Shown here one piece after another: positions 11,255 to 63,913 of a DNA stretch of 64,000 bases (its first letter is position 1; each line of letters begins with the position of its first letter). The notes below the pieces were generated by a model. The model saw only the letters and a list, made by a program, of their open reading frames with translations. It had not been told where the DNA came from and made no database searches. Origin of the DNA: Planctomycetota bacterium (GTDB lineage Bacteria; Planctomycetota; UBA1135; UBA2386); assembly GCA_046290465.1 (NCBI GenBank), contig JBKAGP010000001.1:2880001-2944000 (forward strand), in the 5' to 3' direction. The translations under genes and the position numbers were made by a program.

Positions 11255-11322
11255 GAGTCACCTCCCTCGAGCCGCCGGGGGTTCGCCGACGCACGGGTCG
11301 CCCGAGCTACGGTCAGGTGACG

Positions 11323-11529
11323 ATGACAAACATCAAAACGATCACGATCACCTTCCGCGAAGAGACCTACTCGGCCCTCTACTGGACCGAGGACGACTGG
11401 GTCGTCGTCGACCATCAGGAGCTCGGCAAGAAGGAAGCCGAGATGCGTGGACTGCCGCCCCACCTCCTTGCGCACACGCTGCTCCGCGAGCTGGCCGAGC
11501 AGAAAGTTCTCCGGCGTCGGCCGATCTAA
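11323..11529 (+). CDS. Small hypothetical protein (68 aa), divergent, at the prophage end
   Basis: MTNIKTITITFREETYSALY...; strong GC3 codon bias. Confidence 0.55.
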   Translation: MTNIKTITITFREETYSALYWTEDDWVVVDHQELGKKEAEMRGLPPHLLAHTLLRELAEQKVLRRRPI

Positions 11530-11673
11530 CTTCCCGTCTAACACAGTGACGGAATGACCCCGATCTAACTGCCCTGATCGCCCCCGTATGGCGGTATGCG
11601 AATAACGCTTACCAACTCCCCTGCAACGTGTTAGATGCCATCGAGGAGAGGGAGGCAGAGGGTCTGGAGGGCT

Positions 11674-11718
11674 TTGAAAATGCCAGGGTCGGCGGTTCAA
11701 ATCCGCCCCTGCCCACCA
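11674..11718 (+). other. att core: 3' half of tRNA-Phe(GAA) duplicate
   Basis: TTGAAAA anticodon loop, T-arm GGCGG-TTCAAAT-CCGCC, acceptor 3' strand CCTGCCC-A-CCA. No matching 5' GGGCAGG or D-arm upstream. Confidence 0.85.
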
Positions 11719-12759
11719 CCCTTTCAGGGCGGTCATACAACGGGTTACGACGGCGAGCACGGCCAGCCTCCTTGCTGCCAATTTCGGCCAACCCGCACCC
11801 CATGACGAGGGGAGCCAGCGGCCGAAGAGGTCACGGCAGCAGCCGTGACTGCGGTGGATCCTAGCGCGCTGGCGCGAGCGCGCTCAGCACTGAGTGTGGC
11901 TCCCCTACGGACGCATCGACGTAAGCTCGTCTGGAGTTCGAACTACCCGGCACGGGAAGCAGCGTTCGAAGCCGCAAAGCGGATTCCCGAGAACAGGCAC
12001 GCCACGAGCAGATCCTCGACCTCACGTTCGACGGAGCCGCAACAAAGCGAAGCAGCAGCTTCTACTCATCGACCATCACTCCCATGTTCGATCGGGACGG
12101 AAGATGGCGACTCGCCAACCCTGCAGCATCGAATGCTTGGAGTCTGCGGTGGCCCCCATGATGACAGGAGATCGGCCACCGCATTGACGAGCCGCCAGTG
12201 TGGGAAGTGCTGCGCGGCAGCCTGTTTCATGGAGCCCACTGCGGGCTTGTCGCGGGATCTCCCCACGCACCATGGGCCGCCGCGCAGCGAAGGTCCTCGA
12301 GTCGCCTTGAATGAGCTACTTGCGACTCCTCGGCGCCCGACGTCATCGACTGCTCGACGAACATCACCCAACGACTGCCCTGCCGTCCTGAATCGAGCTC
12401 ACACGATGCTTGCGCAGGTCGTCATGCAGCAGCGATCCGCATCCCAGAGTTGCAGCCGCAGACACTTGAGGATCTCGCACGGGCTGAGTGGACGCGATCA
12501 AGGCAAGCACAACGAACAGCGTTGACAGCAAGTTCCACCAGCTGCGAACTCGCTGCTCGCTGCTATGCACCCGACTGTGCCGAAGGATATCTCTCGGTTC
12601 ACGCACATCGACTCGCCGCCCTTCGAGGGCGCTCCGTCAGGACGCCGCGCGGGAAACGACCGGATCGGACATTGCCCGCACCTGCGCATCGCGCATGCAA
12701 CTCGCGATCACCGAGCCGGCCGCGCACCACACTTGCGCGCTAACGGCCACGCCATGCAA

Positions 12760-13083
12760 TCACCCCCGCTTGCTGGATTGACGCCAGTCGTTCGCAGAGT
12801 CGTAGAACTCGCCGTCATCGCCTTGCACCGTGGCAGTCAATCGCGCGGCGATTACTAGCATCTTGGTGACGTCGACGGGTTCAGGATCGGTGGTGAACAC
12901 ATTGCCCTCGAACCAGTCGAACCAACCGTTCTTACCATATCGAACGGCGCACGGGCCGTTCGCTGGATCACGATACAATTCCGTGTCGGAGTCGATGATC
13001 GCGTACCACTCACGAATGGTGATCTCGCAACCTTCGTTGCGATCCCAATCCACGGCACGAGTAATCCTGAGGTCGTAGCCCAT
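12760..13083 (-). CDS. Hypothetical protein (107 aa)
   Basis: MGYDLRITRAVDW...VQGDDGEFY; GGAGG-free but protein-like composition, directly after the RRM gene. Confidence 0.65.
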   Translation of the reverse strand: MGYDLRITRAVDWDRNEGCEITIREWYAIIDSDTELYRDPANGPCAVRYGKNGWFDWFEGNVFTTDPEPVDVTKMLVIAARLTATVQGDDGEFYDSANDWRQSSKRG

Positions 13084-13091
13084 CGGAGGGG

Positions 13092-13385
13092 CTACCACGC
13101 GCTGCGACCGCGTCCGCGGCTGCCTCCACCAGAGTTGCGTTCCTGCGCCTCGTTGACGCGGAGGGTCCGACCATCGAGGTCCTTGCCATCCATCGCCTGG
13201 ATGGCAGCCTGAGCGTCTTCCTCGGTCGCCATTTCGACGAACGCGAATCCTCGAGATTGCCCCGTATCGCGATCGGTCATGATGGACACGCTGCTGACTT
13301 TGCGTGCATCTTGGCTGAACGCTTCCGTGAGCGAGTCTTCGGTCGAGTGGAAGGAGAGATTGCCTACGTAGAGCCTGTTGCCCAT
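13092..13385 (-). CDS. RRM RNA-binding protein
   Basis: RNP2 LYVGNL, RNP1 RGFAFVEM, LRVNEA, Gly/Arg tail. Confidence 0.93.
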   Translation of the reverse strand: MGNRLYVGNLSFHSTEDSLTEAFSQDARKVSSVSIMTDRDTGQSRGFAFVEMATEEDAQAAIQAMDGKDLDGRTLRVNEAQERNSGGGSRGRGRSAW

Positions 13386-13880
13386 GTCTGTCGAGTGCCT
13401 TGCTTGGCGGTGGTTGCAGACTGCGAGGTCGGTGATCGTTGCCACACGACAACAAGGTCATTCGCAGGTCACTGGTGTTCCAGCATCTCGCCAGCCAGAG
13501 GAGGCGGGTCGAGGGCACTGACGGCTAGGGCCGACGATGCGGACGCATACGCACGCGAATTCGATCAGACAGCAAGGAGGCGACGTCAGCTTTTGGCTCG
13601 ACGACTCCTCCGCAGGGGACCTTAGCCGCAAGTTGGGGGCGACCGTCCAAACCAAATCAACTGAACAGCAAGAAGTTCCGCCCGCTGCCGTCTGACCGGT
13701 CAGTTGTGCTCACAGCCGAATCCGCGTGGGGCCAGCCATGCGTGGCGCTGAAGGCAGTCACCTGACTTGACTTACGCCCAAGCAAGCTCAGATCCCGCGC
13801 CAGAGTCACGGATCTCATCTACATGGCGCGTCGGTTCGCGCCAACATCCGAGAATCGACCACCGCCAGCTGCCTGACCAG

Positions 13881-48621: not shown

Positions 48622-50295
48622 TTAGCGAACGACCACGCGCTGCGGTTCGGTCGTTACCACCACCGCATCCGAACGGCGCCCCTGGCGGAAGCTCTGGACC
48701 ACTCGGACACGCATGCCCTTCCCGCCCGGCGGCGCGAGCAGCACGCACCGGCCCTCCGCATCCGTGGTGGCGCGCGACATCGCGCGCCACGGCAGCTCGC
48801 CGATGCCGTCCGGCATGCCGGAGAGCCGTTCGCCGCGCAGCCACACGACGTCGAGCCGGTGCCGCGAGAAGTTGGCCGGCAGCGCCAGCTGCACCTGCTG
48901 TCCGGCGACCGGCAGCCCATCGTCGTCCACGATCGTCAGCGGCATCGCGACCATGCGCTGCAGGCGCACCTCGAGCGGCGCCTGGCCCTCGGCCGCGTGC
49001 ACCGACACCAACCCGCACGTCCAGCGAAGGTCCTCCGGCACCACCGCGACCCACGTCGGCCCCGCGGCGACACCGACGTCGAGCCGACCATCGCGATGGC
49101 GGCCCGCCGCGCGCAGCTGGGTGCAGAACCAGCTCGTCCCCGGCACCCAAGTACGCACCGCATACCGTTCGATCGGCGCGCCCGAATCGGCATCGACGAC
49201 CCGCAGCGGGACCGCATCCCAACGCCGCAGCGGGACGACCACGTCATGCTCGCCCCACGCGAGCTCCGCCGTGGCTCGCAGCGGCTCGCAGTCGCCGCAT
49301 CCGTAGAGCTTGACCCGCGGCATCCGCGAGACCCCGTCGAACTGCGGCAGCACAAACGTCCCGTCGGGCCCGGTGACGACATCCATGTCGAGGTCGGCCG
49401 CGCGCGGCAGCCGCATCGCCACGCCCTCGACCGGCAGCCCGTGCTGGTCGACGCAACGCCCGGCAAGGTAGGGCCGCCGCGCCACCACCAGCGTCACGCT
49501 CTGGTCGGATTCTTCGGTCAGCAGCAGCCGCGACGGCTCGGGGCGCAGCGCCGGATCGACCGGGACGACCTCGACGGTTGACGACCACAACCGCTCCGGC
49601 ACGACGAAGCGGCCGTGCTCGTCGCTCTGCACACGAATCCGTTCTCCGTAGCGCTCCTCCCACCACACGCGGCAGAACGGTGCTGCCGTCATCGGCTGGT
49701 CCGGATACGGCTCGGGCGGCGGCTTCCAGCCGGGCGTCGGACCGGTGGGCCCCTTGCCAGCACGCATCCGGCGACGAACCACCAGATCGAACGCCATCTT
49801 CTGCGGCCTGCCGTCGCCATCCCTCACGACCCCGCGCAGCGCGACGCCGCGCATGCACGAGAAGGCACACCAATAGGTCGCGCCGGCGCGCAGCGAGCCG
49901 GCCCAATAACGATCCCGCGCGCAGTCGGGATGCTCGAAGCGCAGCTCGACCTCGACGCCGGGGCGGGCCAGCACGTCGAGTTCGAACACGCCGTCCTCGC
50001 CGGCCAGGACCGACGGCCGCCGCCGCAGGTCGGCGTCGTCGCCCGGCTCGACCGCGCCGGAGTAGATGGCCGTGACCTTGCAGCCGGCGAGCGGCTGGCG
50101 CGGCCGCTTCGAGCAGCAGAAGCCGACGATACGGGCGTGTCGCGGGCTGGCTGGCTTCGCGGTCGACGGATCCTGGACCGTTGTGCGCGCCGCACACAGG
50201 TCGGTTGGTGGCGATGCCGCAACCGCAGCCAAGAGCAGCAACATCGGCCAGCAACGCCACCACGGCCAACGGCCACGCAAATCCAAGCGCATCAT
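48622..50295 (-). CDS. Secreted carboxypeptidase-regulatory-like repeat protein
   Basis: Hydrophobic N-terminus; G..VD..G.PV.G and TD.EGR repeats. Confidence 0.65.
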   Translation of the reverse strand: MMRLDLRGRWPWWRCWPMLLLLAAVAASPPTDLCAARTTVQDPSTAKPASPRHARIVGFCCSKRPRQPLAGCKVTAIYSGAVEPGDDADLRRRPSVLAGEDGVFELDVLARPGVEVELRFEHPDCARDRYWAGSLRAGATYWCAFSCMRGVALRGVVRDGDGRPQKMAFDLVVRRRMRAGKGPTGPTPGWKPPPEPYPDQPMTAAPFCRVWWEERYGERIRVQSDEHGRFVVPERLWSSTVEVVPVDPALRPEPSRLLLTEESDQSVTLVVARRPYLAGRCVDQHGLPVEGVAMRLPRAADLDMDVVTGPDGTFVLPQFDGVSRMPRVKLYGCGDCEPLRATAELAWGEHDVVVPLRRWDAVPLRVVDADSGAPIERYAVRTWVPGTSWFCTQLRAAGRHRDGRLDVGVAAGPTWVAVVPEDLRWTCGLVSVHAAEGQAPLEVRLQRMVAMPLTIVDDDGLPVAGQQVQLALPANFSRHRLDVVWLRGERLSGMPDGIGELPWRAMSRATTDAEGRCVLLAPPGGKGMRVRVVQSFRQGRRSDAVVVTTEPQRVVVR

Positions 50296-50442
50296 CGAAA
50301 CGTTCCTTCTGGATCGGCGGCGACCGAGGCTCCACCTGTAGCGCACCGGCGCCGCATCGACCACCCCCGCCGCTGCATCCACGTGCGCGGTGCCCGCGAA
50401 CCCGCGGACCGCTCCGCCGATCCGGCGACGAACACCCCCGCC

Positions 50443-52206
50443 ATGCGCACGACCCTGCAGACAGCCTTCCTCCTCGCCGTGACCAGCCTCCCGGCCGCCG
50501 CCGCGGCGCAGTCCTTCCGCCTCGACTTCCAGGACGGCGTCGGCTCGTGGAGCACCGTGCTCGACGGCGTGATGGGCGGACGTTCGACCGGTCGCGTCAC
50601 GCAGCCCGAGGCCGGCGTCCTGCGCTTCACCGGGCGACTGTCGCTCGAGAACAACGGCGGCTTCTCGCAGATGCGCACTGCGGTCGCTCGCGGTGCGCTG
50701 GCCGGCGCCGAGGGCATCGAGCTCGACGTGCGCGGCGACGGGCGCAGCTACAAGTTTGACATCCGGCAGAGCACGGTGCGCATGATGGCCGGCGCCTACC
50801 AGCAGGAGTTCGCCACCAAGGACGGCGAGTGGACGCGGGTGCGCCTGCCGCTGACCGGCTTCACGCTCTACAGCTTTGGCCGCAAGGTCCGCCGCGCGCC
50901 GCCGCTCGACGCCAGCAAGATCGAGTCGCTCGGCATCACGCTCGCCGACAAGAAGGCCGGCAGCTTTGCGCTCGAGGTGCGTTCGATCGCCGCCTACGGC
51001 GCCGACGCCAGCCCCGGTGATGGCGGCGACGCTGCCGGCAGTGGCGGTGACGACCTCGCGTCGGTCGCCAGGAGCGCCGGCCTCGACACGCTGCTGCGAC
51101 TGGTCGAAGCCGCCGGCCTCCCCCTGCCGCAGACGCCGGTCACGATCCTGGCGCCGACTGACGAGGCGTTTGCCGCGATCCCGCGCGAGTCGTTGCGCAA
51201 CCTGCTGCGGCCGGAGTCGCGCGAGACGCTGCGCCTGATCCTGAGCCACCACATCCTGCCGGCGCCGCAGGCGGCCGGCGACCTGCTGCAACGCCGCACG
51301 CTGACCAGCCTCGCCGGCCAACCGCTCGCCGTCGACGACGTCGTGCGCACCGTCGGCGGCGCCGGACTGGTCGCCACCGACGTGCGCTTCGACGGCGGCC
51401 TGGTGCACGTCGTCGACACCGTGCTGATGCCGGAGACGCGTTCGATCGCCGAGGTCGCCGCCGCGACGCCGGAACTCGCGACGCTCGTCACCGCCGTCAC
51501 CACCGCCGGCCTCGCCGAACAGCTCGGCCCGGACAACGGACCGTGGACGGTGTTTGCGCCGGTCGACAGCGCGTTTGCCAGGTTGCCGAACGGCACGCTC
51601 GCAACGCTGCTCGAGCAGGGAAACCGGCGCCAGCTCACCGAGATCCTCGGCCTGCACGTCGTGCCCGGCCGCATCGCCGCGCGCGACCTGCTGGCCAAGA
51701 AGCAGCTGACGACGCTGATGGGCGCGCCGATCGAATTGCGCCTGGTCGATCGCAAGCTGCAGGTCGGCGATGCCACGATCGTCACGACCGACGTGCAGGC
51801 CGCCAACGGCGTCGTGCACCTGATCGACCGCGTGCTCACCGAGCCGGCCGGCGGTGGCGAGCGCGGCAAGGACGTTCGCCAGCTGCAGCCGCGCGAGCCC
51901 CGCGCCGTCGACGTGTCGACCGAAGCGATGCGCGTCTACGAAGCCGCGATCCGCCGCGGCGCGGGCCTGTGGAACGACGGCAACCGCGACGGCTGCGCCG
52001 CCGTCTACGAGGTCGCGATCCTGTCCATGATCGCGCTCGGCCGCGACCGCCTGCCGGCTGCCGTGGTCGAGGTGCTGGTCGAGGCGAGCCAACGCGGCGG
52101 CCGACAGGATGCGGTCCAGGCCGCCTGGACCTATCGCAACGCGCTCGACGAGGTCTACCGCCGCTTGCGTAGCGGCGCGGAGCCGCAGCGCCGCGACCAG
52201 CGGTGA
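50443..52206 (+). CDS. CIA30 plus two fasciclin (FAS1) domain secreted protein
   Basis: W.TVLDGVMGGRS, NNGGF; TILAPTDEAF and TVFAPVDSAF; NGVVHLIDRVL. Confidence 0.9.
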   Translation: MRTTLQTAFLLAVTSLPAAAAAQSFRLDFQDGVGSWSTVLDGVMGGRSTGRVTQPEAGVLRFTGRLSLENNGGFSQMRTAVARGALAGAEGIELDVRGDGRSYKFDIRQSTVRMMAGAYQQEFATKDGEWTRVRLPLTGFTLYSFGRKVRRAPPLDASKIESLGITLADKKAGSFALEVRSIAAYGADASPGDGGDAAGSGGDDLASVARSAGLDTLLRLVEAAGLPLPQTPVTILAPTDEAFAAIPRESLRNLLRPESRETLRLILSHHILPAPQAAGDLLQRRTLTSLAGQPLAVDDVVRTVGGAGLVATDVRFDGGLVHVVDTVLMPETRSIAEVAAATPELATLVTAVTTAGLAEQLGPDNGPWTVFAPVDSAFARLPNGTLATLLEQGNRRQLTEILGLHVVPGRIAARDLLAKKQLTTLMGAPIELRLVDRKLQVGDATIVTTDVQAANGVVHLIDRVLTEPAGGGERGKDVRQLQPREPRAVDVSTEAMRVYEAAIRRGAGLWNDGNRDGCAAVYEVAILSMIALGRDRLPAAVVEVLVEASQRGGRQDAVQAAWTYRNALDEVYRRLRSGAEPQRRDQR

Positions 52207-53118: not shown

Positions 53119-53193
53119 GCGGGTGTAGTTCAGTGGTAGAACGTCAGCTTCCCAAGCTGAATGTCGTCGGTTCGATCCCGATCACCCGCTCCA
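53119..53193 (+). tRNA. tRNA-Gly (CCC)
   Basis: Acceptor GCGGGTG/CACCCGC, U73, CCA; anticodon arm TCAGC-TTCCCAA-GCTGA; TTCGA T-loop. Confidence 0.96.
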
Positions 53194-54511
53194 TTCCTTC
53201 CAGGGACTTACGCGCGACGCGCCCGAAGCTCCCCTTGCCGTGTGCCAGTTTAGTGCCAGGAAGTCCGCGGAGCTGTGAGCGGCTGCCACCACCACCGCCA
53301 CGCGGTAACCGTTCGACCGCGTCTCTCAGATCGTCGCACACGAGGTGCGCGTAGACACGAGCTGTCAGCTCAGGCGAACTGTGGCCCATGAGTTTCTGCA
53401 CCTGGTGCAGGCCAACGCCGGCACGGAGCAGTCGCGTTCCGTAAGTGTGCCGCAGGGCATGGATGTCGAGCTTCTGGCCCGACGCGTCGATCTTCTCGAG
53501 CTCGGCGCGGTCGAGCAGCCGGTCGAAGATGCGCATCGCGTTCCGGCTTTGCTTGCCCCATGGCTCGCCCCGCGGGGTCAGGAAGATTCGATCGCCGTCC
53601 CCGGGCACGTCGCCGAGTAGCTCGGTCTGGAGTTCTCGCAGCGCGACGAGCTCCTGGACCAGCTCTTTGCGGATGGGGTTGGTTTGTTCGCGACCTGACT
53701 TTGCCGTCTCTGCGCGCAGCCGAAGCGTCGCGCTTTCCTCGTCGAGGTCCTGCCAGACGGTCTGGCTGAGGGCTCCCCAACGGGCGCCGGTCTCCACGAG
53801 CGCGAGCCAGAGAGGGTACTGCGGCACCCGATGCGAGCGCTCGCGGCCGGCGTAGCGACTCCCCTTCGTGCCGTTCTTGATCGTGCGTTCGGCCGCCACG
53901 TGGCGCGCCTGCTCGGCGTCGTCCTCGATCGCGGCCGTGAGGAATCGTTCGATCTCTGCTTCCGTGAGGGCACGCCGACGGTAGCGCTGGTGCTTCTGCC
54001 CCTGCGGCAGTCGCTTGAGCTTCGCCAGCGGGTTCGATGCGATGACGTCGCAGTCGACCGCCCACCGCAGCATCCCCTGGACGGCCGCCACGTCGAGGTT
54101 CGCGGTCCGGTTGGACGCACCGTCTTCGATGCGCCGGCGACGCCACTCGAGCAGGTCGCTCGTCTGCAACTCCGAGACACGCCTGGCGCGCAGTCCCCCG
54201 AGCACGCGCTTCAGTCGGCCTTTCAGGTTGCTCAGGTGCCCGGCACTGACCCTCTGCTCGAGATCGGATTCGTAGAGTCCCCGAACCTCTTCGAGCAGGC
54301 GGTCGTGGGACTCCTCGCGACCAAGCCCGGCGAGCTCGAGGTCCCGCCGACGGATGATGTCTCCGAGTTGACGCTCGGCGACCCGCCGATCCGTCGAAAG
54401 CACCTGGCGGCGCCGCTTACCGCTCGCGTCGCTCCAGTCTCCCACGTAGACCGTGCCACGTTTGTTCCGCCGCCTGACGAGGCGCCCACGTCCGATTGCG
54501 CGGCCTCTCAC
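53144..54511 (-). CDS. Tyrosine recombinase/integrase
   Basis: ETGAR, TAK, HALRHTY, LMGH, RVY catalytic set; GTGA overlap with xis; stop lies inside the tRNA (antisense). Confidence 0.93.
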   Translation of the reverse strand: MRGRAIGRGRLVRRRNKRGTVYVGDWSDASGKRRRQVLSTDRRVAERQLGDIIRRRDLELAGLGREESHDRLLEEVRGLYESDLEQRVSAGHLSNLKGRLKRVLGGLRARRVSELQTSDLLEWRRRRIEDGASNRTANLDVAAVQGMLRWAVDCDVIASNPLAKLKRLPQGQKHQRYRRRALTEAEIERFLTAAIEDDAEQARHVAAERTIKNGTKGSRYAGRERSHRVPQYPLWLALVETGARWGALSQTVWQDLDEESATLRLRAETAKSGREQTNPIRKELVQELVALRELQTELLGDVPGDGDRIFLTPRGEPWGKQSRNAMRIFDRLLDRAELEKIDASGQKLDIHALRHTYGTRLLRAGVGLHQVQKLMGHSSPELTARVYAHLVCDDLRDAVERLPRGGGGGSRSQLRGLPGTKLAHGKGSFGRVARKSLEGMERVIGIEPTTFSLGS

Positions 54512-54870
54512 CGGTTCAGCTCCTCGGACATGCCATCCAACCACTCCTCGATCGTGCGTACGCGCCACCGCTTCGAGCCACCGAAGCGAATCGCTGGCGG
54601 CAGGTCGCCGGCCTTCTCCAGTCGACGGACGGTCCGCACGTCGCACTGAAGCAGCTCAGACAGATCGCGTTCGGTGAACATCTTTCGCAGGGTCGGACGT
54701 GTACGCAGTCGCTGCTCGATCTCCTCGAGCTTCTTCTCCAGGGTGTCTTCGAGCTGAGCCATGAGGCTTGCGATCACATCGGAGTGTCGCGCGCCGGCAT
54801 CACCATCAGGCACGGATGGGAGAAGGCGATCGCCCTCATCACGCATCGAATCTGGAGAGAGTTCACCCAA
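54508..54870 (-). CDS. Excisionase / AlpA-like HTH protein
   Basis: FTERDLSELLQCDVRTVRRLEKAGDLPPAIRFGGSKRWRVRTIEEWL. Confidence 0.85.
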   Translation of the reverse strand: MGELSPDSMRDEGDRLLPSVPDGDAGARHSDVIASLMAQLEDTLEKKLEEIEQRLRTRPTLRKMFTERDLSELLQCDVRTVRRLEKAGDLPPAIRFGGSKRWRVRTIEEWLDGMSEELNR

Positions 54871-54871
54871 T

Positions 54872-56290
54872 CTACCAACCTCGCTTCTTCTTCGGAACAG
54901 ACCCTTGGATGGCCGCCCTCAACACCCCCCTTCGCTGTTCCATCGTCTGGACGGGAGTTCGATTACTGACGTAGTAGGGACCACGATTCTCGCTTTGCCT
55001 GCGTTTGATCCTCCGTGCCCGTTGCGAGGCCTCCATCGCACGGACTCGCCGATGGGCCTCCTTCAACGTCGCGGAGGCGAGCCCACCAACCAATCGTTGA
55101 CACGTGATGAAGTGCTCGAGTTCCTCGATGTCCTTCTCGTAGGCCTCATAGAACCTCGCGAGCAGCTTTGCCGTAGATGCAGGAACCTCCCCGCCTAGAC
55201 AGTCCTCTTCAATCCGGTCGAGGTCCGCGCCGCGCCCTTCATCAACCTTCCGGACGAAGTTGCTTGGATTCGCCCTCGATCTCGTGACGACCTTCCATGC
55301 CTTCATGAACTCCTGGTCGCCCGTTTGCCGGACATAGTGCAGGACCACTTCGCGAATCGCATCACACCCGATCACGGGGGGCGTCATCCTCGCCAATTCC
55401 CCCGGAGCGATGAACGTGTATCCGTTCAGCCTCGGGCTGACGAGCTTCAGCATGCCCTTCCGGCCAACCGGTTCTCCCGAGGCGTCGCGAGACTCCGAGT
55501 CACTCGTTCCATCCGTGAAGATCTCGACGGTGAAGCTGCGCCCGGTGCTCTCGTGATTCCGTGCCGTTCTCTCGGCTCCCGAGCGCATTGCGCGCTCGAT
55601 GCGCTCGGCTTCGGTGATGCTCGGCCCCTCGTCTTGCCGCGGGCGCAGACTCGAAGCATCGAGCAACCCCAACTCGAAGAGAACAGCTGGATGCTCGACA
55701 AAGTCACGCAAGGAGCTGAGGCGCGCCACCTCCGCCTTCCGCTTCGAGAGTCGCTGACGGGCAGCTCGGACATGTTCGATCCACGCGCGCACGGAATCCA
55801 AACCGGCCTTGTCGCGCACCACGCCCACGTCGCCGCTGAGAAGACGTTCGAGGAACGACCTATCACGCGCCTCGAATCGCCGCAGCAGCGGATCGATCTC
55901 GCCTCCCTCCACTGGCTTGGGATCCGGCGCGGGTGTCGGCGCCGGCGTAGGGTCATCAACCTGACCGCGCTCTTGGCCGCCCGCATTCGGCAGTTCCGGA
56001 TCGCCATTCAGAGCGCGAACCACAAGGAAAACGATGGCGAGAGCCGCGACCACGATCACAGCGGTCTTCGCCCGGAACGCAACATTGGTAGCCATACCCC
56101 ACAGAATGCCGTTCGCAACCACTTCCAGGAAGGGCGTGCATCCGAACACACACCCGTAGATGAACACCGAAGCGGCGACGAGCAGCGACGACACCATGCG
56201 CCGCCGCTCGTCCACGCCCCACACCGGCGGCGGAGGCGCTTTCGCGTAGCGCACCTCCGGACGCATCAATCGCTCCTGCAGCAGCGTCAC
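54872..56290 (-). CDS. Membrane-anchored hypothetical protein (2-3 TM, Pro-rich linker, helical domain)
   Basis: GTGA-coupled to the vWA gene; PTPAPTPAP linker. Confidence 0.7.
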   Translation of the reverse strand: MTLLQERLMRPEVRYAKAPPPPVWGVDERRRMVSSLLVAASVFIYGCVFGCTPFLEVVANGILWGMATNVAFRAKTAVIVVAALAIVFLVVRALNGDPELPNAGGQERGQVDDPTPAPTPAPDPKPVEGGEIDPLLRRFEARDRSFLERLLSGDVGVVRDKAGLDSVRAWIEHVRAARQRLSKRKAEVARLSSLRDFVEHPAVLFELGLLDASSLRPRQDEGPSITEAERIERAMRSGAERTARNHESTGRSFTVEIFTDGTSDSESRDASGEPVGRKGMLKLVSPRLNGYTFIAPGELARMTPPVIGCDAIREVVLHYVRQTGDQEFMKAWKVVTRSRANPSNFVRKVDEGRGADLDRIEEDCLGGEVPASTAKLLARFYEAYEKDIEELEHFITCQRLVGGLASATLKEAHRRVRAMEASQRARRIKRRQSENRGPYYVSNRTPVQTMEQRRGVLRAAIQGSVPKKKRGW

Positions 56291-57126
56291 GACTGCTCCT
56301 TCCCTCTGAACGCCTCGAGCAAGGCGACCGCGGACTGGTCGGAGATCTGGCCATCGCTGCGTTTCCTCTCGAGGAGCGCCACCGCAGAGCCTCCCAGCGA
56401 CTCCGCCACCGCCGCCTCGACGGCGGCGATCAGACCATCGCCCTCCTCCACGTTCTGGAAGTCGACGAACCGCCCACCGGTCTTGCTCGCGATGTCACGG
56501 TATTGCTTCTCCGCCGGAGCATCCCTCCCACACCGAACCATGAAGCAGCGAATCTTGGCCCCACTCAAACAAGCGAGGATGCGTTCATGAGTCATGCCGA
56601 ACTCGCAGAGATCGATAGAGTCGTGGTCTCCTGCGAACTCGGGAACGAACTCCTGCGCGTATCCGTGGGACGCATGGTCGCCGACGCAGACCAACACGCG
56701 ATTCCGCGCCACCCAGGGCAGTTGGCTGGCGAAGAGCAGACCGGCACCAAGGGCCTCAACCGAAGTGTCGTTGCCCTCGGTGAATCCCGCACCGTCGACG
56801 AACTTCCGCAGCTGGTCAACTCGGCTCGCCCCGATGAACTCGCCACGTGTGGGACCGCCATCACCGAAGAAGGCGAACGGCGTCTGGCACGTGTGGTCTC
56901 GGTAGAAGCCGAAGGTCATCCGCAGATGTTGGTGACGAGCTACCAGGCGTCGCAGAAGCTCCATCGAACGCGTCTTCACCGCATCGATGAAGGGCTCCAT
57001 CGATGCCGTAGCGTCCGCAAGGACCGCCACGTCGACCCCGCTCTCAACTCGGAGCGCGCGTGACTGCGAGAGAAGGGAACTGCTGGTCAACGCACGCCTC
57101 GTTGATCGGATCGTCGGGAACTTCAT
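56287..57126 (-). CDS. von Willebrand factor A domain protein
   Basis: VDVAVLADATASM (MIDAS DxTxS), FYRDH, GND..EA, W...RVLVCVGDHASHG. Confidence 0.85.
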   Translation of the reverse strand: MKFPTIRSTRRALTSSSLLSQSRALRVESGVDVAVLADATASMEPFIDAVKTRSMELLRRLVARHQHLRMTFGFYRDHTCQTPFAFFGDGGPTRGEFIGASRVDQLRKFVDGAGFTEGNDTSVEALGAGLLFASQLPWVARNRVLVCVGDHASHGYAQEFVPEFAGDHDSIDLCEFGMTHERILACLSGAKIRCFMVRCGRDAPAEKQYRDIASKTGGRFVDFQNVEEGDGLIAAVEAAVAESLGGSAVALLERKRSDGQISDQSAVALLEAFRGKEQS

Positions 57127-57959
57127 GATCGCGCTCCTTCTTGCCCCTGAAGAGCCTCCCACTGCGAGTTGACGTAGAGGAAGATCGCATCGAAGGCGTC
57201 GTTCAACCACGCCAGGTCAAAGGACGGACGGGTGTCGCTGTGGAACTGCTTCACCAGATCCCGCCAGACCTTCCTGGACTCACCCTGCCCTGCCTCCGAG
57301 CCAAAGGTCTCCCCCGGGTCCTCCGGTAGCGCAACCCTGAGCACCGGGCCTCCGTCTTCCATCCCAAGAGTCGCCAGGGAGCCATCCAGCGACTGCAGAA
57401 GGCGAGACACCCGCTCGTCCCACTGCTCACACCGAGCGAGGAAGGCCTCGTATCGCTCGCCAACAGGGAAGAAGCTGTGCTCAAGGAACTCGAGGAAGTC
57501 CCCACGGGCGGCCTCGATGTCACGTCGGGAATCACGCAGATCCTCGACGAACTTCAGATCGGCACCGGCCTCCGCAAGACGCAGCCGCTCGCGCAGGTCA
57601 TTCAGCTCTCGGTGCAGCTCGGCGTTACGAGTGCGTTCCGCTCTCAGATCCTGCTCGATCTTCTGCTTATCCACGACAGCATCGAGCGCTCTCCCATCCG
57701 CCACGAACGCCTGGTGCTCCAGGCCCTGCATTCGCTCGCGGCTCTCGTTGGCCCGCCTCTCCAGGTCGATGACCCAGAAGGCCAGGATGGACAATGCGCC
57801 AACGACCAACGACGCCATCGCGGCCGGCACGACCCCAGCCCCCTCGGACGCCATGACCGCGACGCCGAGGCTTGCGCAGGCTCCCAGACCGAAGAGCCCC
57901 ACCGCCCCGATGACCCGGGACCTCAAGCCATCTGGCCACGCTACGCGGAACCTCACCAT
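57123..57959 (-). CDS. 2-TM, coiled-coil protein with C-terminal J-domain-like segment (HSD)
   Basis: RKVWRDLVKQFHSD...F..VN..WEAL. Confidence 0.65.
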   Translation of the reverse strand: MVRFRVAWPDGLRSRVIGAVGLFGLGACASLGVAVMASEGAGVVPAAMASLVVGALSILAFWVIDLERRANESRERMQGLEHQAFVADGRALDAVVDKQKIEQDLRAERTRNAELHRELNDLRERLRLAEAGADLKFVEDLRDSRRDIEAARGDFLEFLEHSFFPVGERYEAFLARCEQWDERVSRLLQSLDGSLATLGMEDGGPVLRVALPEDPGETFGSEAGQGESRKVWRDLVKQFHSDTRPSFDLAWLNDAFDAIFLYVNSQWEALQGQEGARS

Positions 57960-59461
57960 GGCAGACGAACGCCTCCATCGCGCATCTTCTTCTCGCCGCC
58001 GCTCGACGGCGGCGGGATCTTGAGGCGCGCATAGTCCGCCGCACCCCAGGTGTAGCCGATGTCTTCCTTCGTCAGCTTGCGTCTACGACGCACGTTCTCG
58101 TTGGGCGGCTGCTCGCCCAACATCTGCTTGATGAACTTGCCATCGACCTTCTTGCGCCACGCCCCAACCATCGGAGCACGCGCGACGACCTCGTAACCGT
58201 TCCCAAGGGAGGCCTGCGGGAAGTCCTGAAACTCGTAGGGGTAGACGTTGTGATCCTCGCGCAACTCGTGACCGATCGTTGTGCTCCGGCCTTGCGGCGA
58301 CTTCGTGTCGGTTCGCTTCTCCTGCCAGAACACGTGCTTTCCGAAGAAGCCCGACAGCCACTCAGCCGCATCAGGTGACGCAAGCCGTCCAACGCAGAGG
58401 TTGCCGATCTGCCCGACTGCCTCGCTGGCCTGCTCTCGTCCGCCGAAACGGGCGATCAGGCCGCCTGGGTCCTGAATCGTCGCCGCTGTCCGAACGCCCT
58501 TGATGCGCCCAAGGAGAAGCGCCTCTCGGTAGGAGGCGAGAATCGACTCCGGCGTCTCGTCGACGAAGAGGAACGTCTCATCGACGGGGTAGTTCTCAGC
58601 CCGATCGCGCAGCCGAGCGACGAGAAGACGGAACACAAACGAATTCCACGCCTCGATCGTCTTGGAGTTCCTTGACGATCCCCTGAGGACGATCACCCCT
58701 CCCGAGTTCAGCCATCCATCCACCGTGATGTAGTGCTCTGCCCGCCGCTCGAGCAAACTAGCGAGACGCCATGGCCCCAGCTTGACGTTCAGTGTCTGCA
58801 GCATGTTCTGACTCGCCTCTACGCCCTTCCTCAGATACTCGCGAAGCAGGCTCTTGCCGCGAGGGTGCAGCTGGAGGACGTGCCGCAGGAGGGACTCATC
58901 CCCACACGCGATAAGAAGGTCGTAGAGAAACCAATCGCCTCCGCGCAGCTGTAGCGTGTGCACGATTGCTTCGAGCAGCTGTTGAGCTGCTGGGGTGAAG
59001 AAGTCATGCGACTTCTTCGAGTCCTCGATCATCATGTGGGCGAGCTCCTGACCGTCTTCCGGCGTCACGCAGCTCTTGCCCAGATGCAGAGCGATTCCGC
59101 TCTCGCTGTAGGCATGAAGGTCGATCAGGTACTCAGGCGGGCACCACCCAAGCACGCTCGGCATTAGGTCCTCGCCCTTCGCGTCGAAGATTACGATGCG
59201 ACAGCGAGGACGCACCCGACCATCCCACGGCCTCGCACCCAGCACGTTCCGAAGCAACATCCGTAGCTCCAGCGTCTTCCCCGAACCGGTCTGGCCGAAG
59301 TACATGAAGTTCGGAGCCAGACAACCATCCGGAAGGATGTTCCCCGCAAAAGGGTAGGCCGCCGACAGGCGTAGACGTTTTAGTGCCTCCGGACAGGTCC
59401 GAGCCATCTGCGACAACGAAAGCAGTTCCCCGCTCTCAATAGGATGCGGAGTCGGGGTCAT
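57953..59461 (-). CDS. Type IV coupling protein-like ATPase (TrwB/TraD family), no N-terminal TM
   Basis: GQTGSGKT, IFDAKGE, FF..AA, FLFVDE, GR.KG....IQ. Confidence 0.85.
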   Translation of the reverse strand: MTPTPHPIESGELLSLSQMARTCPEALKRLRLSAAYPFAGNILPDGCLAPNFMYFGQTGSGKTLELRMLLRNVLGARPWDGRVRPRCRIVIFDAKGEDLMPSVLGWCPPEYLIDLHAYSESGIALHLGKSCVTPEDGQELAHMMIEDSKKSHDFFTPAAQQLLEAIVHTLQLRGGDWFLYDLLIACGDESLLRHVLQLHPRGKSLLREYLRKGVEASQNMLQTLNVKLGPWRLASLLERRAEHYITVDGWLNSGGVIVLRGSSRNSKTIEAWNSFVFRLLVARLRDRAENYPVDETFLFVDETPESILASYREALLLGRIKGVRTAATIQDPGGLIARFGGREQASEAVGQIGNLCVGRLASPDAAEWLSGFFGKHVFWQEKRTDTKSPQGRSTTIGHELREDHNVYPYEFQDFPQASLGNGYEVVARAPMVGAWRKKVDGKFIKQMLGEQPPNENVRRRRKLTKEDIGYTWGAADYARLKIPPPSSGGEKKMRDGGVRLPW

Positions 59462-60105
59462 GAATCATCCTCCTCGCCCCGGAAGCTCCGGATGTGTTCA
59501 TCGCAAGCGGCGCGAGCAACCTCTTCAACCTGCGACGCTCCAAGACATCGGTATCCCGCGTAGAGCGGGGTCACCTCTTCCGCTGTGACGGCGAACTGGG
59601 CGTAGAAGCTGGCCAAGAGCAGCGGCAACGTGACGGCCAGTGCGAGACCATGCGTCGACCAGTAGCCATCTCTGATGTCTCGCAGGTCGGCATCGACCAG
59701 CAGGAACGTCACCGCCACGGCCAGGGCGTAGCCGACCAGCACACGAACGAAGGGGCGAAGGTGGTGCCACAACCTCCGTCGAAGGTCGATCTCTCGCCCG
59801 TCTCGCGCACAAAGCGTCCCGTGAAGCAACGGCGGCAACGCGCCGAGGATCAGGAGGATCTCCGGCCAGTAGTAGAGGACCGTTCCTGCTCGCCCTGCCC
59901 CGCTGACGATCCCCAGCCTCCCCCATGACAGGCACGACCAAGTCACCAACCAGGCCGGGAACAGGACCACCGCACACTCGGCGAACAAGCGGACGCCCGT
60001 CCCCACCGTGTCTGGCAGCACAACGCCGCAGGGGCTCGGGTCCCGCCTCGCGATGCGGTCCAGCCTCATGCTGATGAGCTCGTAGGCCAACGGGTGCGCA
60101 TCCAT
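59458..60105 (-). CDS. 4-TM membrane protein
   Basis: Four hydrophobic segments; overlaps both the relaxase stop and the T4CP start. Confidence 0.7.
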   Translation of the reverse strand: MDAHPLAYELISMRLDRIARRDPSPCGVVLPDTVGTGVRLFAECAVVLFPAWLVTWSCLSWGRLGIVSGAGRAGTVLYYWPEILLILGALPPLLHGTLCARDGREIDLRRRLWHHLRPFVRVLVGYALAVAVTFLLVDADLRDIRDGYWSTHGLALAVTLPLLLASFYAQFAVTAEEVTPLYAGYRCLGASQVEEVARAACDEHIRSFRGEEDDS

Positions 60106-62786
60106 CACAGCCTCACCCCCAATCCCGGCGACTGGGACTGACGCCACGCCTGATCTTCCAGCTGCAGCTGGTCCTGGATCGTCGTCGCAAGCTCCTCCCT
60201 CCGACTACGCTGCATGCTGCGGGACAACTCGGCGAGCCCCTCTCCAACCGCGATCTCGTGCGTGTAGACATGGAGGTCGTGCGCCTGCCTGGTCAGCGCC
60301 ACGTAGCTGAGTTCTGCGTCCAGATTCCCCGGATCGGCTAGCACGAGTGCTCGATCCACGGTCTTGCCCTGGACACGGTGGATCGTTGCCGCGAATCCTA
60401 GCTCGACGTGCGGATACACGCGCAGATCGACGTCGGCAAACAGTTCGGCCCCGTTGCGCCCCTCTCGATCAAGACGCACGCGCAGATGACGACCGCTCGC
60501 AGCAACGACCTCTCCGAAGTCTCCGTTCACTACGCCACCGGGCTTCTTTGCCCACAAGCGCCCCCGCCCACCGAACGCAGTGACGTCAACTCGGAACGAG
60601 TTGCGGCGCAGCACGACGCGGTCACCGAGGTGGAAGCACAACGGAGAAGCTCCAGCGCCCCGATACAGCTTGGTGCCGCGCTCACCGAGTTCCACGGGCG
60701 CACCGACCCGCTCGCCACGCTCGATTCGGGCCTTCTGCACCTGCTCGTTCAGCCGAGTAACTTGCGAGCGCGTCGATGCGATGATCAGCGTGTCTCGCCT
60801 CTGACCGGCCCCATAGGACATGTAGCGATCGACACAGGCGTTGATCGGACTCTCCTCCCCACCGCAGACGTGGAGTCTGTCGTGTTCTGCGAGCAGGCGA
60901 AGCGCCTCGTCGGCCTCGCGACTGCGGACGTGACCGCTGAGAGCCTGCATCCACGGTTGCTCCCGCTGCCTCCAGTTCTTCTTGAGCTCGATGTGGCCGA
61001 CCAGATCCGCGAGCCTTGAGAACAGAGAGGCGCCTGAAAGCACAGGACCAAGCTGGCGCTCGTCACCACACAGGATGACCTTCGCCCCCGCTTGCTTGGC
61101 CCTATCGATCACCTTGGCCAGCTTGCGGAATCCCACCATCGCAGCCTCATCGACGACGATGTAGTCGCCCTTCCGAACCTGCATGTGCGACGGGTTCCAG
61201 GTCATACTCCTCGGGTTGACCAAAACCCGCAGGAGCATGCGCACGTGATGGCGCAGCGCTCTTGCCGGCACCGAATGCGACAGGCGCTCGAACCGGTCCA
61301 CGGTGAACGTGCTCTCGATCCGCGCTCCGGCCGCCAGCTCCTCGCGCGCCACACCTGTCGGAGCAAGCCCGATCACGCGTCGCCCCTCCGCATCTGCCGC
61401 CGCCACCAGCGCGGCAAGCAGCCGCGTCTTGCCGGTCCCGGCCGCCCCCTTGAGGACCTTGATAGCGCCCTTCGTCCCAGCGAGGTGCTTCAACGCTACT
61501 CGCTGCTCCCGATCCAGCCCGAGACGCCGAGCCACCTTGTCGAGCTGCTCTTCGCGAACGCGGTGCCCCGCCGCCTTGTGCATTGCCTCGGCATTCGCCA
61601 GGGCGTCCACCTCCACCCCGTAGTTCTCGCGAGTGGTGTAGAGCACGCTGCCGCGTCGCTCGCCCAGCCTGTGAACCCGCTCATCGTTCTGCAACACGTG
61701 ATCCACCGCCCGTACGACATCGCCGATCCGCGCATGACCACCTCGGCATGCATATGCGGCGACCCTCTGAACGTCGGTCTCGCGGAAGGAGGAATGTTGC
61801 GCGGCGACCTGACCGACCGCCCGGCTGGCAGCTCGCCGCGCATTTGTCCGGCTGCGGTCCAGGTTTCCCTTCGCCCGCCATCCGAACAGCCTGCTGATGC
61901 TCTGCTTCGTCACGCCATACCGCGACGCTGTCGCCCGCCACTCGCCGACCAGATCGTCGAAGGAACGCTCGATCTTGCTCGGCCGGATCCGTAGCTGGAT
62001 CGCCTCGCGGGCCTTCGCCGACTCGTATCCCAACTGCCCCGCCTTCTGCAGGAGCTTCGCCCGCGCCTTCGAGAACTCCTTGAGGACCTCTTCTGGAATC
62101 CCGCAGAGCTCGAAACCGTCTTTCGTCTTGCGGACCGCGAGCCCTTCGGCCCGGAGCCGCGAGGCCAACTCGGACGTCGCCATCGCGCCCAAAGCCATCT
62201 TCGCCTCGTATAGCGAACGGCTCTGCAAGGAACCCCAGGTACCGTCCTGTCTCAGGCCGGCATTGAAGATCACAACGTGGCAATGCAGCTGCGGATCCCC
62301 GTGGCGAGACTCGATGTGCCAGAACTTCACGACCACGAGTCCGGCAACCTGTTCGGAGCGCATCCCACCCTTTCCTCTCCGCGCCTTCACCACGTGGTCT
62401 TCGATGTGTCGGACCAGTGAGTCAACCGTCTCGTTCACCGCCCCCTGCACAGTTCGGCGCACGTCGTCGCTACCGAGCAGAGCAACGACGCTGACGCTCT
62501 TCGGGACGCTGATGGTCATGTCCCAAGCCGCATCACTGTCGTCCCCGTAGTTCTGACGCAACTGCTCGGCTTGAGGGCCAATCGCCCTACTCATGTCCGA
62601 GAACCTCTGCAACGTGACCTTCTCACCAAGCAGATCCAGTTCGTCTGCCCCCACACCCCCAAAGACGGGGACCGCACCGTCCTGCAGCAGGTAGCGCAGA
62701 AAGCGAAGTTCGTCACCTTCGCGCTCGATGTCCTGCCTGTGGTAGGACACGAGGTTGCCGGATCCCGATGACATGGAGACGAGCAT
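60105..62786 (-). CDS. MOBF (TrwC/TraI-like) relaxase with RecD-like helicase
   Basis: DMTISVPKSVS, H..SR.GDPQLHCH (HUH), GAAGTGKT, DEAAM, GDERQL, TIHRVQG, YVALTR. Confidence 0.93.
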   Translation of the reverse strand: MLVSMSSGSGNLVSYHRQDIEREGDELRFLRYLLQDGAVPVFGGVGADELDLLGEKVTLQRFSDMSRAIGPQAEQLRQNYGDDSDAAWDMTISVPKSVSVVALLGSDDVRRTVQGAVNETVDSLVRHIEDHVVKARRGKGGMRSEQVAGLVVVKFWHIESRHGDPQLHCHVVIFNAGLRQDGTWGSLQSRSLYEAKMALGAMATSELASRLRAEGLAVRKTKDGFELCGIPEEVLKEFSKARAKLLQKAGQLGYESAKAREAIQLRIRPSKIERSFDDLVGEWRATASRYGVTKQSISRLFGWRAKGNLDRSRTNARRAASRAVGQVAAQHSSFRETDVQRVAAYACRGGHARIGDVVRAVDHVLQNDERVHRLGERRGSVLYTTRENYGVEVDALANAEAMHKAAGHRVREEQLDKVARRLGLDREQRVALKHLAGTKGAIKVLKGAAGTGKTRLLAALVAAADAEGRRVIGLAPTGVAREELAAGARIESTFTVDRFERLSHSVPARALRHHVRMLLRVLVNPRSMTWNPSHMQVRKGDYIVVDEAAMVGFRKLAKVIDRAKQAGAKVILCGDERQLGPVLSGASLFSRLADLVGHIELKKNWRQREQPWMQALSGHVRSREADEALRLLAEHDRLHVCGGEESPINACVDRYMSYGAGQRRDTLIIASTRSQVTRLNEQVQKARIERGERVGAPVELGERGTKLYRGAGASPLCFHLGDRVVLRRNSFRVDVTAFGGRGRLWAKKPGGVVNGDFGEVVAASGRHLRVRLDREGRNGAELFADVDLRVYPHVELGFAATIHRVQGKTVDRALVLADPGNLDAELSYVALTRQAHDLHVYTHEIAVGEGLAELSRSMQRSRREELATTIQDQLQLEDQAWRQSQSPGLGVRL

Positions 62787-63035
62787 CTGCTGCGTGGTCT
62801 AGTTGGCGCTGAGGTGGAAAGCGGAACTGCGACGCAGGCGTTGCCCTTCGCACCGGGGCGCTCGGTGCGGCGTCCTCATGGCAGCCCGTTGGATGTAGCC
62901 AACGAGCTCAAGAACCAACTCATCAGCCATGAAGTGCGGTCGCACGAGATGGCCCATCCCGCCCCATCTGCGCAGACCGTCTCCCAGCTCCAGATGGACA
63001 GACGCTGGCTCCTGTGTCCTCGGTGACATCATCGT

Positions 63036-63395
63036 TCAGCTCCCGTTCATGTCGTGGTTCGGCACCGGCATCACGGGCACCTTCTCCTTCACCCACTTGT
63101 TGACGGCCTTGCGGCCGACGTCGCCGTCCTTAGCGAAGTTCAGCAGAATCGCCTCGCCGAACGCCTTCTGACGCTCGCCCAACACAGCCACTGCGTGCAG
63201 CAGCTGGTTTGCTACGAGGCCTACGCCGCCAGCTGGTGACTCGACCTCCCGGCCTTCCACGCCGATCGCGTCAGCAAGCAAGTCGCGAATCACCTCGGAG
63301 AGCGACTTCCCGGAGCGCTTGGCCCTCAGCATGAGTTCGGCGTACATGTCCGAGTCCAGACGAACGGAGGTCACCTTGCCGCTGAGATTGGTCAT
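63036..63395 (-). CDS. Ribbon-helix-helix protein (relaxosome accessory candidate)
   Basis: VTSVRLDSDMYAELMLRAKRSGKSLSEVIRDLL. Confidence 0.8.
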   Translation of the reverse strand: MTNLSGKVTSVRLDSDMYAELMLRAKRSGKSLSEVIRDLLADAIGVEGREVESPAGGVGLVANQLLHAVAVLGERQKAFGEAILLNFAKDGDVGRKAVNKWVKEKVPVMPVPNHDMNGS

Positions 63396-63913
63396 GCGTT
63401 TTCCTCGACGGTGATGGCGTCGGCCCACACGGCCTCGAAGTTGGCCTCGTCTTCCTCGTCCTCCGTGAAGATGGCGAGGACCTCGACCGCATTTGGGTAA
63501 CCCCCGAACGTCGGGGCCGTCGCTCGCGCGGCGATCGAGTAGCCGCGCATCCGGACTTCCGAGATCACCCGATCCCAAACCGCTGCTCGAGCCCCAGACC
63601 GCACACCATCGATGAGCAGCACGAGGCCACGCCGGTCGCTCAGCGGACGCACGAACCTAGTGGTGCGCCCAGGATCGACGGCCAACTGTGACCAGGCCAT
63701 GGAAGCCGCAATGACCTCAGGATCGTCCGGCCTAGCTGGCCAAGCCTGATCGAGGTCATCCTCCTGATCCGCTGCCATGATCAAGCCACGATGGACCAGT
63801 TCGCTAATCGCGGACGAAACGCTCAGGCCTTCCCGTCGGGCGAAGGCAACGAGGTCGCTATGCAGGCCCAGGTCGAGACGACAGGCAACAGTGCGCAAGG
63901 CGAACCTGCTCAC
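63392..63913 (-). CDS. RHH-containing hypothetical protein
   Basis: VACRLDLGLHSDLVAFARREGLSVSSAISELV. Confidence 0.7.
   Translation of the reverse strand: MSRFALRTVACRLDLGLHSDLVAFARREGLSVSSAISELVHRGLIMAADQEDDLDQAWPARPDDPEVIAASMAWSQLAVDPGRTTRFVRPLSDRRGLVLLIDGVRSGARAAVWDRVISEVRMRGYSIAARATAPTFGGYPNAVEVLAIFTEDEEDEANFEAVWADAITVEENA

Follow-up and report, generated by a model that had tools for sequence, protein, structure and literature searches.

What do the genes lying between the transfer genes and the excision genes of a planctomycetal mobile element do there? The question is raised by a 64,000-nucleotide stretch of a Planctomycetota bacterium (GenBank assembly GCA_046290465.1, contig JBKAGP010000001.1, positions 2,880,001 to 2,944,000; hereafter the window, in whose numbering all coordinates are given), part of a host genome assembled as one contig of 6.59 Mb. 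Here the gene of a type IV coupling protein (T4CP) is followed by genes for a J-like membrane protein (P278), a von Willebrand factor A (vWA) protein and a second membrane protein (P472), which an earlier reading of the letters alone (the original prediction) had taken as a three-gene module that either docks the element to a non-canonical transfer channel or forms a chaperone-linked defense or exclusion system. The conserved unit proved to be two genes, J and vWA, strictly linked to one clade of T4CPs without transmembrane (TM) segments. Our preferred reading, tentative and given somewhat less than an even chance, is that the two proteins act as a coupled pair behind the TM-less T4CP of a ∼77.5-kb integrative and mobilizable element (IME) and recruit the host Hsp70 (DnaK) to that T4CP. 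A role as Hsp70 recruiter is suggested by the gene linkage together with what J-domains and vWA adaptors are known to do.

The locus is an unbroken leftward chain, as originally described: all eight open reading frames (ORFs), namely relaxase, 4-TM protein, T4CP, P278, vWA, P472, xis and int, were found at the expected places on the minus strand, from 62786 down to 53144, and overlap or abut one another (ORF list and Pfam). The TrwC relaxase, fused to a helicase and of MOBF type (60105..62786; Pfam TrwC 1.3e-60, AAA_30 1.3e-42), is the sole TrwC match in the host genome. Behind it lie the 4-TM protein (59458..60147; 229 aa, four hydrophobic segments), the T4CP (57953..59461; 502 aa), P278 (57123..57959; 278 aa, recognized by alignments, a family profile and hydrophobicity), the vWA-fold protein (56287..57126; 279 aa) and P472 (54872..56290; hydrophobic segments, no known family). 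The ORF coordinates give an overlap of 4 nt between 4-TM stop and T4CP start and one of 7 nt between T4CP stop and P278 ATG; in the sequence itself, the P278 stop and vWA start share an ATGA at 57123-57126, the vWA stop and P472 start share a GTGA, and P472 abuts xis. The ATGA overlap makes 57126 the most likely vWA start, rather than the GTG at 57210 that opens the listed ORF (56287-57210). Comparison with L009, a 90%-identical copy of the locus, gave dN/dS (nonsynonymous over synonymous divergence) of 0.13-0.39 for xis, P472, vWA, P278, T4CP, 4-TM and relaxase (seven genes, int being left out), and this purifying selection indicates that the genes compared are real.

P278 begins with two hydrophobic segments carrying positive charge on both flanks, which by charge suggests an N-in, C-in topology, continues through a helical, coiled-coil-like middle (weak matches to coiled-coil families) and ends in 70 conserved residues. 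In this last part FHSDT aligns with FHPDK, FHPDR and LHPDH of three divergent homologs (27%, 20% and 19% identity); the canonical HPD tripeptide of J-domains is thus found in the homologs at loci L011, L042 and L059 and not in the window protein. Among its close relatives, HSD occurs in P278, P0010 and P0011 and HGD in P0012, while the His and Asp of the tripeptide are invariant throughout the family. The L011 homolog scored 1.9e-5 and 25.1 bits against Pfam DnaJ (PF00226; cut-off 27.8), and a family profile built on the final 75 residues recovered mostly J domains from the PDB, including all of the top 37 matches, with the J-domain of Sec63 as the best (1.2e-4) and DnaJ at 5e-4. The complete HPD of three divergent homologs and the profile match to J domains uphold the call of P278 as "J-like (HSD)"; judged by sequence, it appears to be a member of the J-domain family in which the HPD proline has been replaced within the window clade. 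The J-proteins of all lineages have 2-6 N-terminal TM segments.

Its partner has no TM segment by hydrophobicity. A Tat or Sec signal was considered for the conserved N-terminal peptide and rejected, the segment being non-hydrophobic in the window and in homologs. Pfam matches missed the gathering cut-offs (VWA_4: 0.046, 13.7 bits, cut-off 27; Integrin_beta: 0.051, 13.7 bits, cut-off 24.8), and outgroup members pass that of PF00092. A MIDAS-like (metal ion-dependent adhesion site) motif, D38-A-T40-A-S42 ... T121 ... D150, is invariant in six close sequences, with Thr in place of the first Ser; in a wider alignment D150 is invariant (19/19), and D38, T40, S42 and T121 reach at least 90% conservation among ten sequences, with exceptions in a few distant members. 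The AlphaFold2 (AF2) model (pLDDT 62.8, pTM 0.69) matched the vWA domains of TFIIH and integrin beta in Foldseek (E ∼3e-6, probability 1.00). VIA-align gave Z scores of 12.0 to VWF A1 and 11.9 to TFIIH p34 (12.0-11.5 for three structures including the bacterial vWA protein 4fx5), Z scores of 12.0, 11.9 and 11.9 going with root mean square deviations of 3.2-3.6 over 161-172 residues, and the sequence profile found integrin beta-8 in the PDB (1.2e-6). The vWA/MIDAS assignment was therefore correct, given a fold match at Z 12 and the presence of DxTxS..T..D; this is a cytoplasmic protein of vWA fold whose MIDAS-like motif may bind metal.

The vWA family is rare. A word-indexed search returned 5 matches, 1.84 billion proteins yielded 8 representative clusters at E < 1e-30, and full-length members (E ≤ 6.5e-93) occurred in 6 of 339 genomes of the class (G000, G691, G689, G631 with L011, G157 with L042, and G692 with L059). 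The order T4CP, J-protein, vWA is kept in all six, with the relaxase upstream and xis/int downstream wherever the contig extends that far. Since G000 and G691 carry the same element and that of G689 is 90% identical, the six carriers represent about four independent lineages. J stop and vWA start overlap in an ATGA in the window, L011 and L059 and are separated by a 3-nt spacer in L042. No vWA family member was found at 20 other planctomycetal TrwC loci, at only 4 of which a search with the window's protein detects a T4CP. A metagenome scan returned only L011, already known, and neither a viral-contig scan nor a plasmid tblastn with the vWA protein gave a match. The expectation that the predicted module would recur as such was thus borne out in part: J and vWA stand directly behind the T4CP in every genome with the vWA family, and P472 joins them in only half.

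The T4CP itself is recognizable (Pfam TrwB_AAD_bind 49.3 bits, cut-off 20.5; TraG-D_C 27.7 bits, cut-off 22), with the Walker A motif GQTGSGKT and a Walker B-like FLFVDE. No hydrophobic segment that could serve as an N-terminal TM anchor was found in the T4CPs of the window, L009, L042 or L059; TM segments are missing from all four J/vWA-linked T4CPs, as against four of five other planctomycetal T4CPs that have their own. When nine planctomycetal T4CPs were placed in a tree, the five lacking J/vWA grouped as a clade with 97/96 support and left the four linked ones outside it, that of L042 on a long branch. Each of these four is preceded by a small polytopic membrane protein, which in L042 and L059 occupies the equivalent position; the 4-TM protein of the window, without family match in Pfam, NCBIfam, PADLOC or PHROGs, is possibly the membrane anchor of the T4CP. 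The nearest plasmid T4CPs are cyanobacterial (24-27% identity), and no J/vWA pair accompanies them in the two contexts examined. L042 has two further features: a cytidine/MafB19-like deaminase domain (1.6e-13, 1.4e-9) in a 476-aa protein encoded between relaxase and T4CP operon (positions 3484-4914; G157 contig C4), and, on the same 44.7-kb contig, a second, unrelated module (L062) with a TrwC relaxase, T4CP, DUF2726 and integrase.

Outside the element, the relatives of the vWA protein are repeatedly tied to the Hsp70 system. The three nearest outgroup vWA genes in the phylum sample (L043, L044 and L045) all lie near Hsp70-system genes. At L043 the vWA gene is immediately followed by that of a 1034-aa DnaJ protein with tetratricopeptide repeats (DnaJ-TPR; DnaJ 1.9e-17); at L044 two divergent Hsp70-like genes lie within ∼7.4 kb; and at L045 a multi-TM protein ending in a canonical J-domain (HPD; 6e-12 to DnaJ) precedes the vWA, repeating the two-gene architecture of the window among housekeeping genes. 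Of 83 distant relatives scanned, two are fusions of Hsp70 to vWA (P0028 and P0064); the P0028 vWA domain matches the family profile at 99.8% probability (E 2.8e-28), and motifs specific to the family recur in it over and above the generic vWA core. Fusions and J/Hsp70 neighbors together lend support to the earlier suggestion of a chaperone link and make the pair a likely Hsp70-recruiting accessory of the T4CP. It is also worth recording that the L043 cluster (711-13827; G415 contig C3) encodes a phospholipase D (PLD)-like nuclease, a sigma-54-type AAA+ protein, a 1250-aa FtsK/SpoIIIE-like ATPase and small uncharacterized proteins in addition to the vWA and DnaJ-TPR proteins, and is itself a candidate chaperone-based conflict or secretion system. 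No description of a J-domain/vWA pair, or of its link to a coupling protein, was found in the literature searched.

P472 does not belong to this unit. From 2-3 TM helices at its N-terminus a Pro-rich linker leads to a large, strongly charged helical C-terminal part, in keeping with its description as a TM-helical protein. Neither Pfam, NCBIfam, PADLOC, PHROGs nor a PDB profile search gave a match, the Atlas gave no usable match to the whole protein or to residues 130-472, and the AF2 model (pLDDT 48.3) was too poor for a structure search. Its only relatives are two non-self homologs and the L009 copy, none being detected beyond its own clade; the homologs P0007 and P0008 apparently lie on contigs equal in size to those of P0003 and P0002. 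Within the vWA-family genomes the gene is confined to one clade (window, G691 and G689), and in L011, L042 and L059 xis-like or other small genes directly follow the vWA. P472 has a dN/dS of 0.19 against L009, and its dS (0.70) is, like those of xis (0.55) and the T4CP (0.38), set apart from the 0.12-0.17 of vWA, P278, 4-TM and relaxase. The raised values of P472 and xis suggest a separate history of this segment, with recombination within the module. From its distribution, P472 appears as a clade-specific addition to J and vWA, probably acquired together with the xis segment; its absence from three lineages and its deviating synonymous divergence speak against the proposed three-gene unit.

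Under the Hsp70-recruitment reading, one lineage of mobilization modules would have taken up a two-gene Hsp70 co-chaperone/adaptor unit behind its TM-less T4CP. The J-domain would face the cytoplasm and engage DnaK, and the MIDAS site of the vWA protein would serve as an adaptor by binding an acidic residue in one of three partners, T4CP, relaxase or Hsp70. DnaK brought to the membrane-associated T4CP might then assist in unfolding, holding or passing on the relaxase-DNA substrate, or in assembling the motor; in either case the J/vWA complex would act in DNA transfer. Several observations weigh against this. The element holds no Hsp70 gene of its own, and the linkage effectively rests on some four independent lineages. 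P278 of the window, taken alone, matches neither DnaJ in Pfam (E ≤ 10) nor any J-domain in a single-sequence PDB search, and the sequence change to HSD or HGD may mean that Hsp70 stimulation is weakened, altered or lost in the window clade. At L099, a T4CP lacking TM segments is accompanied by a small TM protein but by neither J nor vWA. The L045 pair, lying outside mobile elements, possibly points to a role beyond transfer, as does the L043 context, whose resemblance to a conflict system raises the possibility of a non-transfer role. Finally, many of the other distant vWA relatives are vWA-alpha-kinase or UBC-vWA proteins of VWA_4 type.

The pair might instead be a conflict system (entry exclusion, anti-phage or anti-defense) located beside mobilization genes, with the vWA as sensor or adaptor, the J-protein coupling Hsp70, and P472 as an optional part. 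We regard this as unlikely, though it draws on real parallels: in the portions available of the two studies concerned, vWA proteins are among the core components of chaperone-based conflict systems (PMC7159879), and TerY-like vWA genes lie beside EssC-like and VirB4-like ATPases in type III-A CoCoNuT operons (PMC11090510). PLD nuclease, AAA+, FtsK-like ATPase, vWA and DnaJ-TPR genes stand together at the outgroup locus L043, and the island itself carries other defense genes (Hachiman HamA with its helicase, and AAA_13). Against it, the best PADLOC-DB 2.0 scores were 15.7 bits for vWA/RTasTM (E 0.0021) and 11.6 bits for P278/JetC, with none for P472; no PHROG matched, and no effector domain (nuclease, protease, pore or kinase) was seen in J, vWA or P472. 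For all three genes, the absence of matches in PADLOC, PHROGs, NCBIfam and Pfam agrees with the claim that they belong to no described system. The pair moreover co-diverges with the T4CP and stays coupled to it across elements whose cargo differs, whereas defense cargo usually differs among close relatives; the L045 pair, among housekeeping genes, is likewise hard to fit to a conflict role.

A doubtful alternative of a different kind is an Hsp70-independent scaffold, in which P278 would have a degenerate J-like fold and, as a TM/coiled-coil protein, tether the TM-less T4CP, with the vWA bridging the two through its MIDAS. The division between the four J/vWA-linked T4CPs without TM segments and the others, four of five with them, would suit such a tether, as would the 2-6 N-terminal TM segments of every J-protein. 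HSD or HGD in place of HPD in the window clade points the same way, and J-like proteins without HPD that have a structural role are known, Pam16 being one. This account is at odds with the invariance of His, Asp and the rest of the J domain across the family, with the full HPD of three lineages and with the fusion of the same vWA subfamily to a complete Hsp70, and the 4-TM protein before the T4CP is already a candidate anchor. The least probable account, in our view a very unlikely one, makes the pair passive cargo, that is, a general membrane quality-control module (DjlA-like J-protein plus vWA) that was captured and has no transfer role. The occurrence at L045, outside mobile elements, of a multi-TM protein with C-terminal J followed by vWA would be expected if this were so, and the island is rich in membrane cargo (RND pumps of the resistance-nodulation-division type and a P-type ATPase). 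A passenger would not be expected to keep one place, codons overlapping, between T4CP and xis/int across four divergent lineages that differ in cargo, or to be confined to one T4CP clade.

How the element is transferred bears on all of these readings. No match to VirB4 (PF03135, TIGR00929), TrbI/VirB10 or TrbL/VirB6 turned up in the host genome, and a scan of 74 island ORFs revealed no type IV secretion system (T4SS) family. VirB4 was likewise absent from the five other carrier genomes and from 301 sampled Planctomycetota genomes, 18 of which have TrwC. A T4SS hidden among unannotated island ORFs was considered and rejected, the largest of these being 541 aa and those of 476 and 541 aa matching no family; small novel channel proteins among them are possible. 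Our counts agree with a preprint survey of Planctomycetes that, in the portion available, lists 29 MOBF relaxases from 21 chromosomes, frequently accompanied by a T4CP, and records no complete mating-pair-formation system (10.1101/2024.01.22.576637). The present element resembles those in combining a chromosomal TrwC/MOBF relaxase and T4CP without complete mating-pair formation, and is distinguished from them by its separate clade of TM-less T4CPs with J and vWA, neither of which is mentioned in the same portion of the survey. The idea of a non-canonical channel accords with the absence of VirB4 from host, carriers and sampled genomes. A bolder proposal, which we consider quite improbable, is VirB4-independent export, in which the TM-less T4CP, its 4-TM partner, the J-protein and the vWA would harness Hsp70 in a translocation machine that moves the element between genera.

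Several known systems offer partial parallels. Like DjlA (a type III J-domain protein), P278 has an N-terminal TM anchor and a C-terminal J-domain predicted to face the cytoplasm, a layout that in DjlA-type proteins localizes DnaK to the inner membrane; unlike DjlA it lacks a TerB-like domain and has instead a coiled coil, HSD, a place in a relaxase-T4CP operon and a vWA partner. An example joining TerB and DnaJ, DjlA-like, was seen at L107. A membrane-tethered J-domain beside a translocation machine also recalls Sec63 (with BiP) and Pam18/Pam16 (with mitochondrial Hsp70), where Pam16 is a J-like partner without HPD. Those eukaryotic proteins work on the trans side to pull in imported proteins, whereas the J-domain of P278 is predicted in cis, in the donor cytoplasm, at a DNA/protein export motor. 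The MoxR-vWA and vWA-MoxR-VMAP systems, as far as the accessible text describes them (PMC7159879), use a MIDAS vWA as co-chaperone or adaptor of a ring ATPase; the operon (53144-63913) has no MoxR AAA+ and no VMAP or effector gene by Pfam, the vWA partners here being a J-domain protein and an FtsK/HerA-type T4CP. A vWA next to pumping ATPases of the FtsK/HerA superfamily is shared with the TerY-like vWA of type III-A CoCoNuTs, whose association with EssC-like, SpoVK and VirB4-like ATPases is left unexplained in the sections available, which also report no J-domain partnership of the kind seen here (PMC11090510). The locus differs further in lacking the McrBC/CoCoNuT core and in its vWA subfamily (nearest Pfam VWA_4/Integrin_beta), and no PP2C phosphatase or Ser/Thr kinase family of a TerY-P triad was found among the neighbors by Pfam. 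Rki of phage RB43 is a precedent for a mobile element with its own J-domain protein for host DnaK; in the part of that report at hand Rki affects sigma-32 stability, is not membrane-anchored and has no vWA, in contrast to the anchored P278 coupled to a transfer ATPase and a vWA partner (PMC3486835). Domains and element type are already known, and as far as our searches reach the novelty lies in a J and vWA accessory of the T4CP and in the association of this vWA subfamily with Hsp70.

The chain ends at a tRNA-Gly(CCC) gene (53119..53193, plus strand; ARAGORN), the integration site and one boundary of the island. Its last 47 bp (53147-53193) recur ∼77.4 kb downstream, beyond the window at the equivalent of 130588-130634 (exact repeat search of the host's own genome), and this att repeat sets the length of the island at ∼77.5 kb. 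Next to the tRNA gene lie int, a tyrosine integrase (53144..54646, minus strand; Pfam Phage_integrase 6.4e-21), and xis, an excisionase-like helix-turn-helix (HTH) protein (54508..54870, minus strand; Pfam HTH_17 1.5e-8, NCBIfam excise domain 0.014). The int ORF as listed overlaps xis and reads through the tRNA gene (53144-53193; translation end ...GIEPTTFSLGS), implying that the true int is shorter at both its start and its end, whose position is uncertain. At the other end of the chain, a ribbon-helix-helix protein upstream of the relaxase (63036..63578, minus strand; Pfam RHH_1 7.5e-8) is kept in L009 and L010 and is a candidate relaxosome accessory. With int and xis, att repeats at a tRNA gene, its own relaxase and T4CP, and no mating-pair-formation family among the scanned ORFs, the island has the features of an IME. 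ARAGORN also called a 96-nt "tRNA-Arg(gcg)" at 49965-50060 (minus strand), within a 1156-aa ORF (48622-52092), which is probably either spurious or an unusual element.

The island was found again in another genus. In the single-contig genome G691 its left 14,008 bp, up to the tRNA, are 99.993% identical and its right 10,637 bp, up to the att repeat, 100% identical, and identity stops exactly at both att repeats; the chromosome flanking the tRNA matches G691 only in scattered pieces elsewhere at 65-76% identity (mostly 70-76%). A near-identical island in chromosomes of ∼70-76% identity points to a very recent move between genera. Chimeric assembly is a formal alternative, and both copies sit at tRNA-Gly in complete contigs. 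G691 contig C1 (around 489185-643706) has further 47-50-bp copies of the tRNA-Gly repeat at ∼541752 and ∼489185, suggesting several islands stacked in tandem at tRNA-Gly. Cargo of the island includes ParA, RadC, an AAA_13 ATPase, a ClpX-like AAA protein, DUF5131, a Hachiman pair (HamA and helicase), a copper P-type ATPase, a multicopper oxidase, three RND pumps, a cation diffusion facilitator (CDF) transporter and a histidine kinase. One cargo stretch outside the window (window-equivalent 72896-84995; L001 9896-19020 and L002 17-2995) holds the AAA_13 ATPase (782 aa), DUF5131, an HTH protein, a 476-aa uncharacterized protein, the ClpX-like AAA+ (498 aa) and the Hachiman-like pair (HamA 2.3e-9 and a 992-aa DEAD helicase). 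The left end of the window is phage-like, with a terminase large subunit gpA (1530-3563; ATPase 6.6e-62, nuclease 7.2e-52), an HTH_36 protein (8300-9319) and DUF5131 (9633-10661) within 1530-11254, and GC content down to 0.62 at 12-14 kb; this region is possibly a prophage, or what is left of one, with no relation to the island.

The recurrent link of this vWA subfamily to J-domain proteins and Hsp70 suggests an undescribed class of Hsp70 adaptors. For the Planctomycetota, the spread of MOBF relaxase/T4CP elements is a puzzle, as VirB4 was not found in the sampled genomes and yet a virtually identical island occurs in two genera, and a putative chaperone co-factor pair wired to the T4CP gives a concrete handle on the question of planctomycetal transfer. 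If true, Hsp70-driven export would give bacteria, for the transfer of DNA, a counterpart to the Sec63-BiP and PAM motors. As the cargo comprises copper and RND efflux as well as defense genes, the route by which the element is transferred matters for how metal resistance spreads among environmental bacteria.

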